Part shown: piece after piece, positions 16,019 through 35,036 of the stretch
Numbering within the stretch: position 1 is the stretch's first letter
Layout: each line of letters opens with the position of its first letter
Source of the DNA: a virus
Taxonomy: Duplodnaviria > Caudoviricetes
DNA length: 44,163 nt
Virus record (IMG/VR): IMGVR_UViG_3300025610_000042
Coordinates: 1-44,163 of that record
Strand: one strand, 5' to 3'
Position numbers and translations under genes: made by a program
The notes under the pieces: generated by a model
Database searches by the model: none
Seen by the model: only the letters and a program-made list of their open reading frames with translations
What the model was told of the DNA's origin: nothing

Positions 16019-17750
16019 CTCCTAAGAGTAATGATCTTATATCTGGTGCAGGACCTTGTGGTACTGGTTGTCCACCGCCCATCATTTGTTCAAGTAACGC
16101 AGCTTCACCTTCTGGTACTTCTGGTTCTTCTGCTGTATAAAATTTATCTAGTATTGATTGCATAGAGTTAGGATTTTTATAAATCTGTACTAACGCCATT
16201 GTTGCTTTAGGATCACCTTGACTTGCTTGTACCTTTAATGTTTCAAACAAAGTACGTTCTGCTTCGTCTTTTAATATTCTGTCGTTGATCTTTTGTACAT
16301 TATCAAGTCCGTCCATGTTTTCTTGTAATGTCTCTTTGTCAATTATTCCTGCTTGCAATAACTGTAAACCAGAGACAATCTTTGTTGGTTCATCAAATCC
16401 TGCCATGACTCCATACACACGTCTAGTCTTGTACATACCTTGTATGTCTGTGCTAGGTGTATATTGTTCTGCATACGCTGTGCCTTTAAGATAACCTGCT
16501 AATGGTTTTTTCTTGTTACCATTTAATACTTCGTCCATCTCTAAACGTTTATAATCTAGTTCTTCTATTGCTGTTTTAAGTGCTAACTGATATTCTTTTA
16601 CGTTTAGATCAACGGACGATAGTAACTCTTGTAATCCCCTACCTGTAACAAATGAGTTAGGAGATATAGCGTCATCACTAACTGGATAGCTTGATCCAAC
16701 ACGAAGTTGTCGTTCTATCCTGTCTATCTGTTGAAACAACTGATATGGAACATTGTTTGGTGGTTTAGCGACTTGTGAACCTGGTGTTAAATAGTTGACT
16801 GCAAATCTACCGCGCTTGTAGTTCCCACTCTCTAATTCACCAATAATATTCGTTTCTGTGAATACGCTGTCTTCCATAGCAATTATGGACAAGACGTTAA
16901 TCTTTGCCATAGCTGCCATCAAACCTAGTACATGATCATACTGACCAGATAATCTATCAAAGCTAAATCTTTTAGATATAACAAAACGTGGACCTGATTT
17001 AAGAGGATTAGGTGTAAAGTCCAGAATTTGTTTTTGTTCTGGTAAAAATACGTAGGTACCATCTTCATCATAAAACTCTACAAGTTCTGTACCGTCAGCT
17101 AAATGATTATCCCAACTTCTTTGAAATCCGTCATGGTATTTAAACTTACTATAACCTGATGGGAACTGACTTGACTCATCAACCATAACTTGTGCTTGTG
17201 GGTACATCTGTTTAATAACAGCGTTAGGTACAAGTCTTATAAGTGCTAATTCTTTTGGATCTTGATCTGGTCCGTAATATCCTGGATAACAATCATAAGG
17301 ATCACGTAGTTCTGCGTGTGGGTACATAATGCCATCTGGTGACATTTTTTGTCTTATGATCCATACACAAAAACCATAACCAGGCAACCATCTAGCTGCT
17401 TGTGGTAACTGCATATCCATTTTAGAATTGCTATCTAAGTTAGTAACTATACGTTCTAACTTCTCTGCTTTGTTTTTAGCACGTTCGCTATCTGCGTAAG
17501 CGTCTACCTTTATGTCTGGCATACGTCCTAATTTTTGTGCTAAGTGTTCTAAACCTGAATTTATAAGATTAGGTATTGGTAAATCAATGTCGTAATTCTT
17601 TGCGCTCTCACCTAACAGTGCAGCAATACCATTGCTACCACCGTTCATAATGGATCTGACTCTATCACGATATTCATAGTGTCCACTATGTTCGTGCATT
17701 CCTTTTAGGTCGTCAGTCTTAATTAATAATTCGTCTGGGGTATACACCAT
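16002..17750 (-). CDS. Portal protein
   Basis: About 580 aa directly after terminase with TAATG overlap at 17750; Pro/Gln/Gly-rich C-terminus typical of podovirus-type portals. Confidence 0.8.
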   Translation of the reverse strand: MVYTPDELLIKTDDLKGMHEHSGHYEYRDRVRSIMNGGSNGIAALLGESAKNYDIDLPIPNLINSGLEHLAQKLGRMPDIKVDAYADSERAKNKAEKLERIVTNLDSNSKMDMQLPQAARWLPGYGFCVWIIRQKMSPDGIMYPHAELRDPYDCYPGYYGPDQDPKELALIRLVPNAVIKQMYPQAQVMVDESSQFPSGYSKFKYHDGFQRSWDNHLADGTELVEFYDEDGTYVFLPEQKQILDFTPNPLKSGPRFVISKRFSFDRLSGQYDHVLGLMAAMAKINVLSIIAMEDSVFTETNIIGELESGNYKRGRFAVNYLTPGSQVAKPPNNVPYQLFQQIDRIERQLRVGSSYPVSDDAISPNSFVTGRGLQELLSSVDLNVKEYQLALKTAIEELDYKRLEMDEVLNGNKKKPLAGYLKGTAYAEQYTPSTDIQGMYKTRRVYGVMAGFDEPTKIVSGLQLLQAGIIDKETLQENMDGLDNVQKINDRILKDEAERTLFETLKVQASQGDPKATMALVQIYKNPNSMQSILDKFYTAEEPEVPEGEAALLEQMMGGGQPVPQGPAPDIRSLLLGGVQGA

Positions 17751-19657
17751 TACCAAAAAACCTCGTTGTATTCACTTTGCTTATAATAGCTATACGAAGG
17801 AGTATAGTCGCTTTCTGCTTCAGCTAACATCATTTTTACATTGGTACGTATACGTTTCATTGGAAACCAACTTGCCATAACTAAGTCAGTTTTAGTTTTT
17901 ACATTACGTGAATTACTTGCACCTGCTTGTGAAAAGTAAATTAACTGTTGTCTAAATATATTGACAAGTCTTTGTGTCTTAGAGTCTGAATACGGTATGT
18001 TTATCTTTTCTTGTTCATACATACCTACCATACTGGTTACACCAAATGTAGGATCCCATTTATTTTTATAAGTCTGGTGTCCTTCTATACGTACACCATG
18101 ATTAGCTGCCCACATTTTTATATCTCTGTCTTGACCAATAGCACGTTGGAATCCGTTTTCTTCTATGATCCAGTGACTTAACCAATACTTGTCATACCAT
18201 TCCTTCATTAAGTTATGTGCTTTTTGTATACCACCACCTTGATCGTTCTTCATATCTACAAGCCATACTTGTTGTGTTTTAACGTTATATGCCCAAAGAA
18301 CTGCTGCCTGATAACCTGTACTAGCAGGATCGAGTCCTGCAATAAGACTTGTGCCTGGTGGTATGTCTCCTAGCTTCCTTGATTTATCTAAACACTTATC
18401 AATCATCTCTGCTGTAAATAACTCCATACCTTGTGGTATAGCTTTGTTTAGATAGACCATCTCAAATATATTTCTACCACCTGTAGTCTCTGCTGCAGCT
18501 AACTGTTCCATTAACCATTTATGTGTACGTTTATTTGACCATAACATGTGTTTTGTATGATCTATAGATTCGTCTTCTAGCGGTACTTCTAAGTCATGCG
18601 CACGATCAACAATAGTCTCCCATGCTTTGTTTTCTAAGAGATGATGGTAAAGATCGTCTGGGTGTTGTCTTGATCCAATGACGACCATTCCTGTATGTTC
18701 CTCTTTTCTTGACTGTAATGTTGTGGTCCACCAGTTCCTGGTGTTTTCTCTAGCACTTGGTTGCACAGTACTTCCATGATCTTCGATGTCGTCTGCAATA
18801 ATAAGGTCTGCGTCTCTGGAAAGGATCTTACCTCCCTTTCCAATTGCGACAAGAGTTGGCGACTTAATACCAGAGACTGTTCTAGTTGCAACAGTAAATT
18901 GACTGGACGACCAACTTTTTCCACCTCTATTAGAAGGTCTAAATCCGTCCCAGTCTCCGTAATCTTGTATGAGTCCTTCATTATTCTCCAAATGATCTAG
19001 TACCGCACCTACGGAGTTACGTGCAATGTCTTCGTTACCACCGCACCACATGATACGTATGTTAGGATTTTTACAAATCATGTATACGCAAAAGTGTGTA
19101 AGTAGATCTGTCTTACCATGTCTAGGCGGAGACAAGATCATTAACCGTTTACCGTGCTTTATACTATCTAAGATAGCACCAATCCACTTCTTTTGAAAGT
19201 CTGGTGTCTCATAATTTTTACCTTGTTCTGTTAAGAAATATTGATCACGAAAATCAACAAAGGAGTTTACGTCAGCTTGCAACTCGAAGGGGTCCCCACG
19301 CTTTTCGAGCTTTGCTTCTTTTTCTACATCTTCGAGATATGCTGCTACTGCACGTGACACTGTTGATGGACTGCAGCTTAGTATGTTTGCTACTTCCTTC
19401 TTTGTCTTCTTACCTTCTAAAATGTCGTTGAAAAAATTTTTTTTCTTCATAATGGCGTAGTAATCTCCTCTACGCTTCTGTACATTTTCATCTACAGTCT
19501 TTTCTACCTGGATCTCTTTAGTAGGTTTGTTTGCACGCCATGCACGTTGTCGTGTTCTTTTAGAACACCTCTCACTACAATACTTTTTACGACCTTCTGG
19601 TAAGGGGACTAAACAGTTGTCTGCTACGCAGATTGTGATTTTTTCATTATTTGACAT
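17750..19657 (-). CDS. terL: Terminase large subunit with N-terminal Cys-rich and HTH extension
   Basis: Walker A SPPRHGKT, Walker B LIIADDIED, IGSRQHPDDL, nuclease GLDPA, IEENGFQ, DLVMASW. Confidence 0.95.
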   Translation of the reverse strand: MSNNEKITICVADNCLVPLPEGRKKYCSERCSKRTRQRAWRANKPTKEIQVEKTVDENVQKRRGDYYAIMKKKNFFNDILEGKKTKKEVANILSCSPSTVSRAVAAYLEDVEKEAKLEKRGDPFELQADVNSFVDFRDQYFLTEQGKNYETPDFQKKWIGAILDSIKHGKRLMILSPPRHGKTDLLTHFCVYMICKNPNIRIMWCGGNEDIARNSVGAVLDHLENNEGLIQDYGDWDGFRPSNRGGKSWSSSQFTVATRTVSGIKSPTLVAIGKGGKILSRDADLIIADDIEDHGSTVQPSARENTRNWWTTTLQSRKEEHTGMVVIGSRQHPDDLYHHLLENKAWETIVDRAHDLEVPLEDESIDHTKHMLWSNKRTHKWLMEQLAAAETTGGRNIFEMVYLNKAIPQGMELFTAEMIDKCLDKSRKLGDIPPGTSLIAGLDPASTGYQAAVLWAYNVKTQQVWLVDMKNDQGGGIQKAHNLMKEWYDKYWLSHWIIEENGFQRAIGQDRDIKMWAANHGVRIEGHQTYKNKWDPTFGVTSMVGMYEQEKINIPYSDSKTQRLVNIFRQQLIYFSQAGASNSRNVKTKTDLVMASWFPMKRIRTNVKMMLAEAESDYTPSYSYYKQSEYNEVFW

Positions 19658-19663
19658 ATCTAT

Positions 19664-19679
19664 ATGGTATAGTGTAGCA
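19664..19679 (-). promoter_or_regulatory. Extended -10 promoter for terminase
   Basis: Minus-strand TGC-TACACT (19679-19671), 13 nt above the ATG, no Shine-Dalgarno. Confidence 0.5.
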
Positions 19680-19961
19680 TATCAGGATAAGCATTGTGGT
19701 GTTCCTGCCTACACAAGCACCACAAGATAACGATTCGTTAATAGGGTTGGCATAGCAGGACCGCCTTAGTCGTGGGTTGAGCCACATTCCTCACATTTTA
19801 TTTATTAGAGAGAGAGCGCATTTACTGTTACTAGACTTAATAAACTGGTTTGGGTTGGGAGTGACACAGGGATCGAACCACCTACTACTAGAACTCGACA
19901 TTTAAAAAGTACAATATATAGTACTACTACATATAGTACCTTTAGACTACACTATATATAG

Positions 19962-19967
19962 TATACT
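19962..19967 (+). promoter_or_regulatory. -10 element for the tRNA-like RNA
   Basis: TATACT separated by 7 nt from G19975. Confidence 0.5.
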
Positions 19968-19974
19968 GTAGACT

Positions 19975-20051
19975 GGGGGTGATCTGGTCAGGGTTAAATG
20001 CTTATCCAAATACTCATCTAACCAACGTGGGTTCGACTCCCACCACCTCCA
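19975..20051 (+). ncRNA. tmRNA-like tRNA-like domain (Ala identity) lacking the mRNA-like domain
   Basis: Acceptor GGGGGTG/CACCTCC with G3:U70 and discriminator A; T-arm GTGGG-TTCGACT-CCCAC; no D-stem; central helix GGTTAAATG/CATCTAACC; CCA not encoded. Confidence 0.75.
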
Positions 20052-20301
20052 CAAATTGCCAGGTAAACATTGACGTATTCATCTATATTTTCTGCGCGCC
20101 GCGATTAAGGTATGGGGGTTTGTGTTTGCGTGTGTTTATGCGTGTGTGGTTGTGTTGCGCGGTGCTGCGATTCGTAGGCGGTTTGCGTCGTACTGTCTCG
20201 ATATGCGTTCGACAACTAGAAGACCAGGCGCTGCTTTAAATCTTCCAGGAGTACCTGGTTTTAAAATGGTGATCTAAATTATTTTGCGCACGTGATACAA
20301 A

Positions 20302-20324
20302 GAAAAAGCGGACCGTAGTCCGCT
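20302..20324 (-). terminator. Intrinsic terminator ending the early operon
   Basis: AGCGGAC-N4-GTCCGCT followed by T5 on minus strand. Confidence 0.8.
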
Positions 20325-20354
20325 CTCTCTCTTCCTGGTTATTCGTACGTTACG

Positions 20355-21083: not shown

Positions 21084-21659
21084 TTATATACTCCTCCACA
21101 AATATATTTTTCCGTTTACTTCTGCCCTTTGCATATCCATAAGCATATCGTGGCGCACTGCGGACCAATCAATATAATGATATAATCTATCTGTCTCGCT
21201 CACGTCATAGATTTCCATAAACTCATATTCCAGGTGCGTGTTCTGTTCGTCTATGTTGTCGAATACCTGGACGGAGTAAGCAAATTCTTCGAACATCTCG
21301 CTTGGCTCTTGATTAATGTCTAATTCATCATTCATTAGATAAACATCTTTAAACGCTCTAATGTAATCAAAATTTGGAACGAGTTTTAAAAGTTCAACAT
21401 ATCCAAATAATTCTTCGGCTAGCATATACTCGCCGCCTCCAAAATCATTATCTTGTATGTGAACTTCTTCACCGCCACAAACGAACGGAGTTTTGGCTCT
21501 TCTGTGTATCTCTTCCACGTCAAGCGCTCTCTGTATCTGTTCAAGCGTTGTGTCTTTGTTTATTTGGAACCAGTAGAAAGTCAAGCGCCCTTGATTGTAA
21601 CAAGCAAGGCAGCCAGGACAAATTTCTATAAAGTTCTTGGTCTCTGTTTGTTGTGTCAT
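21084..21659 (-). CDS. ardA: ArdA-family antirestriction protein (DNA mimic)
   Basis: CLACYNQGRL..W, GEEVHIQDND, C-terminal YIDWSAVRHDM; strongly acidic. Confidence 0.85.
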   Translation of the reverse strand: MTQQTETKNFIEICPGCLACYNQGRLTFYWFQINKDTTLEQIQRALDVEEIHRRAKTPFVCGGEEVHIQDNDFGGGEYMLAEELFGYVELLKLVPNFDYIRAFKDVYLMNDELDINQEPSEMFEEFAYSVQVFDNIDEQNTHLEYEFMEIYDVSETDRLYHYIDWSAVRHDMLMDMQRAEVNGKIYLWRSI

Positions 21660-28395: not shown

Positions 28396-28959
28396 CTATA
28401 TTATTGGTCTTCCCTTTAGTTTAGCGTCAATTCGTGTCACTTTTTCGTGAATAGAATCCAACGTTTTACTATCGGAACTTTGTTCTGGTGCGGCAGCACC
28501 ATCTAAATTTATCTTACTTACTTCTAATGTAACTGGTTTACCTTGTAGTAATACTTTTGCAACCTGGTCATACATTTTTTTGTACGCTTTTTGTGATGAT
28601 CCAATAAATCCGTCTTTGCTTACATCTAACACTTGCTGTGTAGATCCTGTAAGCACACAACCTTTGGTATCTTCATCAGTATTCCCTCCATGAAATAAAA
28701 TCCATTGAAAATTAGGTACGTCTTTTATTTCTAACATACCGTAGTGTGAATTTTGATAACGCTTAGAATAATTATTGTGAAAGCCACCTTCTTTTCTAAA
28801 CTTTATAGGATATGTACCTTCAGGTATACAGGTTTCACCATATACTTTGGTTACTTGATATTGGTCTTCAAGTGTATAACACTCAAACTTACCGTTGATA
28901 AACAACATTCCATTGGTTGCGTCAATTCCAAATTCATGTCTAACTAATTGTATCTTCAT
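28396..28959 (-). CDS. DUF5675-family protein, putative endolysin
   Basis: T.G.L...CYTLED..GETCIPEGTY..VPNF..ILFHGGN...T.GCVL.G; next to holin. Confidence 0.75.
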   Translation of the reverse strand: MKIQLVRHEFGIDATNGMLFINGKFECYTLEDQYQVTKVYGETCIPEGTYPIKFRKEGGFHNNYSKRYQNSHYGMLEIKDVPNFQWILFHGGNTDEDTKGCVLTGSTQQVLDVSKDGFIGSSQKAYKKMYDQVAKVLLQGKPVTLEVSKINLDGAAAPEQSSDSKTLDSIHEKVTRIDAKLKGRPII

Positions 28960-31334: not shown

Positions 31335-31606
31335 TATATTTCTCTCCCATTCATATCATTATGTGTCTTGCTATCTAAAATACCAAATGCTTGATTGACT
31401 TCCTCGATTGTAAGTTTGCCATCATTGAGATATTTTCTAGCAAGTATTTCTAGTACATTAGCTACACCTAATAGACCTGCAAGTAATGATGATTGTATAA
31501 CATCAATACCTACAAGTGATCCTGCACCTATAACACTTAATGCTTGTGCTATAAATACAGCAATCATGCGTTTAGATATATTCCAATATAAAGAGTAACC
31601 TTGCAT
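31334..31606 (-). CDS. Holin-like membrane protein
   Basis: Two hydrophobic segments then DGKLTIEEVNQAF. Confidence 0.6.
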   Translation of the reverse strand: MQGYSLYWNISKRMIAVFIAQALSVIGAGSLVGIDVIQSSLLAGLLGVANVLEILARKYLNDGKLTIEEVNQAFGILDSKTHNDMNGREI

Positions 31607-31609
31607 AGG

Positions 31610-31795
31610 TTACATTATACTATTAAGGAAAGCTGCGCTGCTCGTAATTGCAACAAGCCAACCTAAAATCTCCTGACGTGTTGGTGATTTATTTATTTTT
31701 TCATGGAGTTCGTCAATGCGCTTATTAGCAATATCAACTTCTTCTTTAATTAATTGCAAGTATTCCTTCGTTGTGAAGCCGTTACCGTTAGACAT
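31610..31795 (-). CDS. Small coiled-coil protein with C-terminal membrane anchor
   Basis: KRIDELHEKIN then ILGWLVAITSSAAFL. Confidence 0.65.
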   Translation of the reverse strand: MSNGNGFTTKEYLQLIKEEVDIANKRIDELHEKINKSPTRQEILGWLVAITSSAAFLNSIM

Positions 31796-34025: not shown

Positions 34026-35036
34026 ATGAAAAATTTGCACATACAAATATTAGGCAACGGTTTACCATCGCATTTGTCTTTAGTAAAATTTTATAAAAAT
34101 AATAAAATAAATTGGGATTATGTTGAAAGCAATTTTGAATTACCTATGTCATCTACACTAGATCTTATACCATTTTTAAAAGAAGGAATAAATTTTGATT
34201 GGTCAGATTTAAATTTAATTAACGGTAGTTTAAAAACTGGAGTTCAAAAAAGAAATTACAATAACAAAGTATTTAATTCTAATTTTCACGCACCCTACGT
34301 TGCTTTACACTTTGATACTTTAAGTATGTGTAAATATTTGTACGATCAATGTGGATATACAAAAACAAAAAAGTCAGATATTATTATTAATACAAGCAAA
34401 CCAGAAACATTTGAAACGTATAAATTATTAAATCATGTACCAACTAATTGTGGTGTTGGTTATAAAATAAAAGAAAAACATAACATAACACATACAACAA
34501 TAGAAGCTGTTGAACACGGTTGGTTGCAAACAATACCAACAAAAGATTATATTTATGTTTATTATATATTTAATTCTGATTTAAATACACCACAAGAAAT
34601 AGCGAACTCATTACCATTGCGTAATTATAATTATCAAGTTATTAATTTTTCTAGTTACTATTATCAAGATCCATTTTTAGATCAAGAATTAAAATTAGGT
34701 CTTAATTCTTTTTTTATAGAACCATTTGACGCTACATCTATATCTGGAAACATAAGGTTGTTAGATCTATACACAGAAATAAAAAATAATTTTATTAAAA
34801 AAGAAGAGGGATTGTATTTATATTATGATTACATTAAAGAAGCAATGGAAGTATTAATGTTGCATTATGTATCTGATGTACCCTACAAAAGTAAATTCTG
34901 GCAAGAAGCAAAAGATAAAGCAGTTGATTACTTAACAAACACTGGTGTAAAAAAAAGAGATGTAAGTAATTTTTATACTAAAGAAGGATACAATAAGTTA
35001 TATAAAAATTTAAATGTTTTTAATTATATTCAATAA
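34026..35036 (+). CDS. Flavin-dependent tryptophan halogenase-like protein (divergent)
   Basis: ALHFD, GWLQTIP, GLNSFFIEPFDATSI, LHY..SKFW. Confidence 0.7.
   Translation: MKNLHIQILGNGLPSHLSLVKFYKNNKINWDYVESNFELPMSSTLDLIPFLKEGINFDWSDLNLINGSLKTGVQKRNYNNKVFNSNFHAPYVALHFDTLSMCKYLYDQCGYTKTKKSDIIINTSKPETFETYKLLNHVPTNCGVGYKIKEKHNITHTTIEAVEHGWLQTIPTKDYIYVYYIFNSDLNTPQEIANSLPLRNYNYQVINFSSYYYQDPFLDQELKLGLNSFFIEPFDATSISGNIRLLDLYTEIKNNFIKKEEGLYLYYDYIKEAMEVLMLHYVSDVPYKSKFWQEAKDKAVDYLTNTGVKKRDVSNFYTKEGYNKLYKNLNVFNYIQ

Follow-up and report, generated by a model that had tools for sequence, protein, structure and literature searches.

The window analyzed here, the whole 44,163-nucleotide stretch of IMG/VR virus record IMGVR_UViG_3300025610_000042, carries a small plus-strand RNA gene that is, by its anatomy, a real "TLD-only" tmRNA, i.e., the tRNA-like domain (TLD) alone, of the type of Mycobacterium phage DS6A. 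A conserved, covarying structured sequence of about 200 nt lies 290 bases upstream of this mini-tmRNA; together they are predicted to make up a bipartite RNA. While TLD-only phage tmRNA of the DS6A type is already known, the novelty, as judged by sequence comparison, is a covarying docking partner for it.

The body of the mini-tmRNA is 77 nt long (19975-20051, with G1 at 19975), inside the range of roughly 65 to 95 nt taken for RNAs of the DS6A type. Its sequence and its ViennaRNA fold (-24.4 kcal/mol) agree on what the first-pass annotation had described: an acceptor stem with G3:U70 and the discriminator A73, an unpaired D region, one arm, an AAC connector, and a T arm (Table 1). The fold energy alone is not strong (z score, -1.8 to -2.0). 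A73 is followed by CAA, so that CCA is not encoded, and the D loop, which is shorter, lacks UCGA/UUCGAC; both peculiarities had already been pointed out. Of the SmpB-contact positions, the connector A is present, while the D-loop U17/C18/G19 run lacks the canonical UCGA, one G being possibly equivalent to G19. The "long helix" reported earlier (GGUUAAAUG/CAUCUAACC) has to be revised to segments of 5 and 3 bp separated by an A.C mismatch, of which the outer 5 to 6 bp alone are kept in relatives. Its inner 5' strand is the docking strand, which together with an 11-nt return linker makes up the 22-nt arm loop.

Table 1. Features of the RNA island and of related sequences (window positions, unless preceded by a locus name)
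Feature	Position	Strand	Remarks
Terminase large subunit gene	17750-19657	-	Divergent from the RNA cassette; phrog_38, E 1.5e-67
Extended -10-like site before partner	19665-19680	+	TG-N-TATAGT, then 7 nt; 41/41 cassettes; putative promoter
Partner RNA (predicted)	19681-19871	+	Docking strand, hairpins H1 to H4, invariant G-rich block
Partner docking strand	19685-19695	+	4 nt after presumed start; mostly unpaired in partner's own fold
Partner H1	19694-19703/19716-19725	+	8/10 pairs with compensatory change
Partner H2	19744-19750/19761-19766	+	4/6 pairs with compensatory change
Partner H3	19772-19775/19782-19785	+	3/4 pairs with compensatory change
Partner H3 + H4 region	19772-19816	+	H4: no compensatory change
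Partner G-rich block	19842-19871	+	Nearly invariant; no covariation support for structure
Three 15-nt palindromic repeats	19910-19964		Spacer between partner and mini-tmRNA; in window and relatives
-10-like hexamer TATACT	19962-19967	+	7 nt before G1; putative promoter
Mini-tmRNA (tRNA-like domain alone)	19975-20054	+	Sequence, predicted fold, Rfam match, structural scanner
Acceptor stem	19975-19981/20044-20050	+	GGGGGTG/CACCTCC; 7 bp including G3:U70
D region	19982-19991	+	No stem
Arm in place of message ring	19992-20023	+	5-bp closing stem 19992-19996/20019-20023; 22-nt loop
Docking strand in loop	19997-20007	+	Complementary to 19685-19695
Connector	20024-20026	+	AAC
T arm	20027-20043	+	Stem 20027-20031/20039-20043; loop TTCGACT
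Discriminator A73	20051	+	Followed by CAA (to 20054)
Unannotated TLD-only genes of cultured phages	L199:1141-1228, L202:1148-1225, L324:1491-1568, L325:1491-1569		In tRNA arrays
Stand-alone TLD-like sequences	L261:4001-4085, L275:4001-4068	-	Chloroflexota and Peribacteria assemblies

The Rfam tmRNA model (RF00023) aligns to the mini-tmRNA from model position 1 to 374 with about 300 middle positions absent (E 1.2e-16; 45.3 bits, just below the gathering score of 47). This match of both ends with the middle deleted bears out the earlier description as a message-less tmRNA; the tag frame, resume codon, and pseudoknot ring of standard tmRNA are absent from the mini-tmRNA in the same alignment. Run over the window, ARAGORN calls no gene, and Rfam at gathering scores returns no match. 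A purely structural scanner finds the mini-tmRNA as the sole site in the window and finds nothing in 200 second-order Markov copies.

The U-CCA-A in the window's loop would allow another reading, namely, a tRNA that lacks the D arm and has a long anticodon arm, with CCA as a Trp anticodon. We find this barely credible: a 7-nt loop occurs in only 1 of the 64 hairpins of the wider family (30 have 4-nt loops), the CCA triplet is not kept in relatives, and neither ARAGORN nor Rfam tRNA calls the mini-tmRNA. The broader alternative of a canonical tRNA, which had been named at the outset, falls on the checks with ARAGORN, Rfam, and family loop sizes.

The mini-tmRNA sits in a non-coding island that extends from the terminase start (19657) to a terminator-like hairpin near 20301-20330. 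The minus-strand genes of the window (terminase, portal, SU10-type capsid, RusA, exonuclease, and ArdA) indicate a tailed phage. The nearest cultured terminases and capsids, at 25 to 32% identity, are mostly those of actinobacteriophages, from which we weakly infer a low-GC aquatic actinobacterium as the host. The terminase is extended at its N terminus by a zinc-finger-like part (weak Pfam zf-CGNR). Directly upstream of its gene there is no small-subunit gene but the RNA island. An ArdA antirestriction homologue (21084-21659, minus strand; PF07275, 30.6 bits, above the cut-off) is encoded 1 kb from the cassette, and the sole long plus-strand gene, which is tryptophan-halogenase-like (34026-35036), lies in a low-GC stretch.

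We collected 79 terminase loci, 65 of which contain the gene start. Counting relatives with enough flank, the mini-tmRNA occupies the same place in 33/33 at a terminase (TerL) identity of at least 90% (some of them near-copies of the window), in 22/23 at 80 to 89%, and in 0/6 at 56%. The first-pass annotation had cautioned that only the 3' half might be conserved; in the relatives, both halves are. That the site is an attP remnant or another DNA-level feature, with the upstream complementarity being a DNA inverted repeat, we consider very improbable. tmRNA 3' ends are common integration sites (as in Shandong1, with a match beside the integrase), and the island may hold a genome end, but both mini-tmRNA halves are present and covary, no integrase was found among the open reading frames scanned (52 by Pfam, 40 by PHROGs, and 16 by NCBIfam), and the position is fixed in 55/56 relatives with at least 80% TerL identity and enough flank.

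The clade relatives also record covariation within the mini-tmRNA. At 80 to 87% identity, most have the T loop UGCAA. Throughout the 18 distinct clade sequences, a D-loop GG goes with a T-loop UUC (nine sequences) and AG goes with UGC (nine sequences), which is the contact expected at a tRNA elbow. This swap is probably one event. Unrelated UGCAA-loop RNAs have AG in 17 of 18 cases (by eye). G3:U70 and A73 are kept in all 25 aligned clade copies.

Read in a 25-sequence alignment, the upstream sequence behaves as structured RNA: 98.9% of the alignment cells in its hairpins pair, versus 41 to 50% in slid controls, as scored on the same 25 sequences from which the structure was derived. No Rfam family, tmRNA included, matches the partner. 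The H1 loop (19705-19711) is complementary to the H2 loop (19753-19758), but a loop-loop pair is unproven because both loops are nearly invariant, and the G-rich block could act as DNA. The conserved upstream motif is present in 59 viral stretches (60 with the window); 56 of the 60 have a mini-tmRNA downstream, three are cut by contig ends, and one has a 3'-deleted copy. In this last relative (L331, from the same contig as L186), the partner is kept and the 3' half of the mini-tmRNA is deleted, by real loss or by assembly error. Among metagenome contigs, a set that overlaps the viral one, a mini-tmRNA is present at 59/59 motif matches. In addition, a GA repeat in the partner (19807-19818) is complementary to a CT repeat (20321-20332) 500 nt away, by the terminator-like hairpin. 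The CT repeat is kept in 46/48 relatives while the adjoining hairpin varies, and the flanks seem to covary in some; since the repeats are of low complexity, cognate pairing (10.3 bp) barely exceeds non-cognate pairing (9.5 bp).

The partner's docking strand is the sole site in the window complementary to the loop strand of the mini-tmRNA. An 11-bp complementarity arises by chance in 14 of 500 shuffles and is weak evidence alone; it is the comparison across relatives that makes the case for docking strong. A helix of 8 to 12 bp can form in 41/41 distinct cassettes of the clade, in three sequence types with compensatory changes. Among the 14 partner/loop types, pairs 1 to 7 hold in all 14, and two-sided changes occur at pairs 4, 5, 7, 8, and 9; as the types fall into three sequence groups (eight, five, and one types), these represent few independent events. 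The mean duplex energy is -14.8 kcal/mol for cognate and -7.8 kcal/mol for between-group combinations. The docking G.U pairs fit plus-strand RNA only, which speaks against a DNA inverted repeat. In metagenome contigs with both ends readable, 9 to 12 bp are found in 55/56, the remaining one (L620) being mismatched inside the helix. For the window, docking is calculated to gain -14.0 kcal/mol at an opening cost of 3.4 kcal/mol, leaving an 11-nt linker to span the helix.

The hexamer TATACT, which had been noticed 7 nt before G1, is found there, and TATACT, TATAAT, or TACAAT stands 6 to 8 nt before the mini-tmRNA in 41/41 distinct cassettes. Because a -10-like hexamer precedes both RNAs with similar spacing in all 41, two transcripts are suggested. 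An alternative, sigma70-like reading before the partner spans 19651-19680. Across the genome, the promoter-like motif common to both shows no enrichment (9 matches versus 16.9 expected). Elsewhere in the window (31606-31622, minus strand), the start codon ATG of a 90-amino-acid gene is preceded at 7 nt by TATAAT, with the same spacing as before the mini-tmRNA; the transcript may be leaderless. The 15-nt palindromic repeats of the spacer, which are present in both clades described here and overlap the promoter region of the mini-tmRNA, resemble NrdR boxes.

This arrangement also bears on the idea that the partner is an antisense-like off-switch, or one strand of a long-range pair that controls processing within a single precursor, the free mini-tmRNA being the active form. 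The docking strand is unpaired at the partner's presumed 5' end, docking would open the inner arm of the mini-tmRNA, and both RNAs lie on one strand, where read-through could yield a precursor of about 370 nt whose predicted fold contains the helix. Nevertheless, each RNA has its own conserved -10-like site, and the helix covers the loop only; with the acceptor, elbow, and T arm left free, it would make a poor switch. We regard this idea as improbable.

RNA contigs from eight Logan runs cover the flanking protein genes, but the island is represented only by scattered low-depth pieces (19714-19912, 19835-19989, 19835-20006, and 19996-20150). As assembled contigs from which strand, ends, and level are unreadable, and in which DNA carry-over is possible, they neither support nor refute expression. 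Pieces of 31 nt at 20025-20055 in three runs (X1 to X3) were rejected, as their unlike flanks assign them to another sequence. RNA contigs of the minus-strand small-gene cluster end at 20335 in three runs (X2, X3, and X4) and at 20318 in one (X1). Since they stop beside a minus-strand hairpin with a T run (20301-20335), there is a weak hint that this is a real terminator.

TLD-only genes are common yet invisible to annotation. A pattern scan of viral contigs yielded 119 loci in 19 of 64 parts (about 420 are estimated in all), which form 70 clusters at 85% identity; ARAGORN calls overlap only 10 of these. We dropped seven clusters, of which three are the 3' ends of full tmRNA of the actinobacterial type and four are called tRNA-Ala by ARAGORN, and retained four other ARAGORN-overlapped clusters on structure, leaving 63. 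The pattern itself fixes G3:U70, A73, and most of the acceptor, which are thus uninformative for selection. The free pairs (acceptor pair 5 and T-stem pairs 1 to 3) are each paired in 63/63 clusters with four to five pair types, a variation that, at the sequence level, shows selection on the family fold. The middle connector A is found in 61/63 clusters, both canonical motifs (D loop and connector) in 27/63, and an encoded CCA in 17/63. Another 56 loci came from a scan directed at the variant with a UGCAA T loop.

Cultured phages share the gene: Microbacterium phage Franklin22 and Streptomyces phages Genie2, LuckySocke, and Shaeky have unannotated copies inside tRNA arrays, and five cultured-phage copies have G3:U70 and A73, both of which the scanner requires. 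The structural scanner found no copy in five other cultured-phage loci. The Franklin22 query is covered to at least 80% by 26 phage records. Streptomyces phage Braelyn has an annotated full tmRNA together with an 80%-identical match across a whole mini-tmRNA. A scan of GTDB gave 120 loci in 5 of 64 parts, and the resulting estimate of about 1,500 is not a family count: 115 of the 120 were rejected as false 5' ends inside full-length actinobacterial tmRNA, because these tmRNAs have an internal GGGGCTGAGAAA, situated about 85 nt from the 3' end, that mimics a 5' end. ARAGORN tmRNA calls overlap 106/120 loci, and three of seven loci checked with Rfam are full tmRNA. Only one Chloroflexota and one Peribacteria sequence (L261 and L275) look like stand-alone copies. 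A plasmid search returned only 3'-end matches.

Docking does not extend to this family in general. Complementarity of at least 11 bp upstream is rare beyond the two clades (2/46 loci versus 2/184 non-cognate pairs), and 18 further UGCAA-type RNAs show no general docking (best, 6 to 9 bp). A loose kissing-loop pattern gave 119 loci (21 with a small RNA, 5 cut, and 93 without) and no new distant homologue.

The layout recurs in a sister clade whose terminase is 71% identical. Of 46 loci examined, 37 have usable flank; a small RNA of 91 to 93 nt is present in 18/18 loci at 81 to 100% identity to the sister-clade terminase and in 0/19 at 50 to 53%. In 16/18 loci it can form a 10-bp helix with an equally placed site, and a central double mismatch breaks the helix in the other two. 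The loop of the small RNA (L389 and L408) contains a 6-nt palindrome that is still palindromic after the double change, so that self-pairing would be an alternative in the two mismatched copies. The RNA upstream of the terminase in L389 and L408 is a different multi-helix, covarying RNA with no Rfam match, and nhmmer finds no homologue of the clade 1 partner in the 18 sister loci. A motif of the sister-clade partner resembles RNase P; this identity was rejected for want of an Rfam match. Seven of the 18 sister-clade copies have G3:C70 instead of G3:U70. Since G3:U70 is described as the AlaRS determinant and as conserved throughout tmRNA (PMC3985003), some docked forms may do without charging.

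We favor a reading, to which we assign a probability of roughly 45%, in which the docked pair acts as a two-RNA device, competing for SmpB and stalled ribosomes with the tmRNA of the host. Each RNA would be made from its own promoter. The host would add CCA to the mini-tmRNA, which AlaRS would charge via G3:U70/A73 and SmpB and EF-Tu would carry to the A site; there it would accept the stalled chain and offer no tag frame, so that unfinished proteins would escape the host degradation tag. The loop would dock on the partner by the 11-bp helix, and the partner likely occupies the place of the lost ring, where it would stabilize the small RNA or control when it is active. The competition reading rests on the inhibition reported for the DS6A form, the kept elbow, and the kept connector A. 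The middle A of the connector is the equivalent of A334, which lines the SmpB Trp122 pocket in Escherichia coli (PMC8363625).

Several observations run against it. The D loop of the mini-tmRNA lacks UUCGAC, and its connector is AAC. Because of these two features, and with 27/63 family clusters keeping both canonical motifs, SmpB binding by the mini-tmRNA is uncertain. The alanine determinant is lost in the 7/18 sister-clade copies with G3:C70, and the co-occurrence in Braelyn of a full tmRNA and a match to a mini-tmRNA would be odd for a pure inhibitor. Against docking itself stand the few independent events, the L620 mismatch, the 2/18 broken sister-clade copies, and the restriction to part of the family.

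These observations leave room for a somewhat unlikely alternative in which the mini-tmRNA is a tRNA-shaped handle or decoy that is independent of SmpB and perhaps uncharged. Its tRNA fold would protect, present, or localize the partner, or would soak up host factors or elbow-reading defence nucleases. Compensatory changes preserve the elbow, whereas the D-loop motif that faces SmpB is gone, the alanine determinant is changed in the sister-clade copies just cited, and the partners that go with the same small RNA in the two clades are unrelated (nhmmer, 18 sister loci). Furthermore, defence systems are predicted to bind tmRNA via SmpB-like folds (PMC11090510), and the ArdA gene is 1 kb away. On the other hand, G3:U70 and A73 are present in 25/25 aligned clade 1 copies and in the five cultured-phage copies (where the scanner requires them), and no target or partner protein was identified for such a handle.

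It is also conceivable, albeit unlikely, that the pair is a tmRNA split into two genes, with the partner as the message in trans, encoding a short phage-chosen tail and a stop but no host degron. The order of the partner (H1, single strand, H2, and more hairpins) echoes PK1, message, and H5. A UAG lies in the H2 loop in 24/25 partners, the frame after H1 in the window reads DNDSLIGLA*, and a 9-codon frame to UAG exists in 9/25 aligned copies. Stops are mildly depleted in the UAG frame (8/22 linkers versus 16 and 13 in the other frames). However, counted from the invariant G, UAG follows at 25, 26, 27, 28, and 29 nt in 5, 1, 10, 2, and 7 of 25 copies, respectively, and the peptides have 1 to 57 residues. 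Because of these five spacings and variable lengths, there is no conserved tag, and we do not count DNDSLIGLA* as one. In tmRNA, moreover, the resume point is fixed by positions -6 to +1 (PMC3985003). The partner's 3' continuation would leave the helix by the elbow, not by the far end as in tmRNA, and no Rfam tmRNA match covers the partner. The same degree of doubt attaches to the functional form of this idea, a two-gene phage rescue machine in which a closed, alanine-charged RNA plugs into a separately made RNA that replaces the message ring. The phage would then free stalled ribosomes with a short non-degron tail, and partners would be swappable between lineages.

The copies in cultured Streptomyces and Microbacterium phages, unannotated as they are, make it testable whether, and why, phages target trans-translation. 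With the docking partner comes a modular RNA-RNA device for which compensatory variants exist in nature; if the partner does prove to be a message in trans, this would be a new form of tmRNA.

In our searches of the openly accessible main-text literature, phage TLD-only RNA is mentioned only in two tmRNA-database papers (PMC4131195 and PMC11915505), and no description of a docking partner for such an RNA was found. The first-pass annotation had named message-less tmRNAs of some protist mitochondria; the phage precedent, DS6A, and the upstream partner had been overlooked. CDS-less tmRNAs occur in jakobid and oomycete mitochondria and in Mallomonadaceae plastids (PMC11915505). They likewise have a tRNA-like domain without a tag frame; in the organelles, however, the RNA is described as the sole tmRNA, with a nucleus-encoded SmpB (PMC11915505), whereas the mini-tmRNA is a phage extra. 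The bacterial Y RNA YrlA is another anticodon-less tRNA mimic joined to a second RNA module, but it depends on Ro60, and its acceptor stem is closed by a loop and so has no CCA end (10.1101/312249), while the acceptor end of the mini-tmRNA is free and none of 52 window open reading frames matches Ro60/TROVE (Pfam).

Within the tmRNAs proper, the mini-tmRNA shares the 5' and 3' ends of standard tmRNA (SsrA, RF00023) and lacks about 300 positions comprising the pseudoknots, the tag frame, and H5. Permuted two-piece tmRNA (RF04321) likewise consists of two RNA pieces joined by base pairing, but there the acceptor stem is split within one permuted gene and one piece bears the tag (PMC11915505). 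Here, the tRNA-like domain is one closed piece; the partner lies before it, has a promoter-like site of its own, and carries no conserved tag. The RF04321 model reaches only 19.8 bits on the window. The closest counterpart is the "TLD only" tmRNA of DS6A (Hudson, Lau, and Williams 2014; PMC4131195). A TLD-only-like molecule is reported to be a strong inhibitor of tmRNA, with titration of SmpB as a possible cause (PMC4131195), and Nawrocki et al. 2025 (PMC11915505) report that in E. coli the DS6A form inhibits the endogenous tmRNA; both papers cite Mao et al. 2009. Read directly from the genome, the DS6A RNA measures 80 nt (record positions 28478-28557), versus 77 nt for the mini-tmRNA, and has the same layout: G3:U70, A73, an unencoded CCA, a stemless D region, one arm, a 3-nt connector, and a T arm. 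Both are phage borne, unannotated, and not at an integrase (that of DS6A is 9.6 kb away). The DS6A loop has no comparable docking match (best, 8 bp upstream and 10 bp downstream). The two RNAs differ in that DS6A retains UCGAC in its D loop and has an inner hairpin that is closed (AAAACC-GCAC-GCGG), whereas the mini-tmRNA lacks UCGA and instead has an open loop complementary to the sequence upstream.
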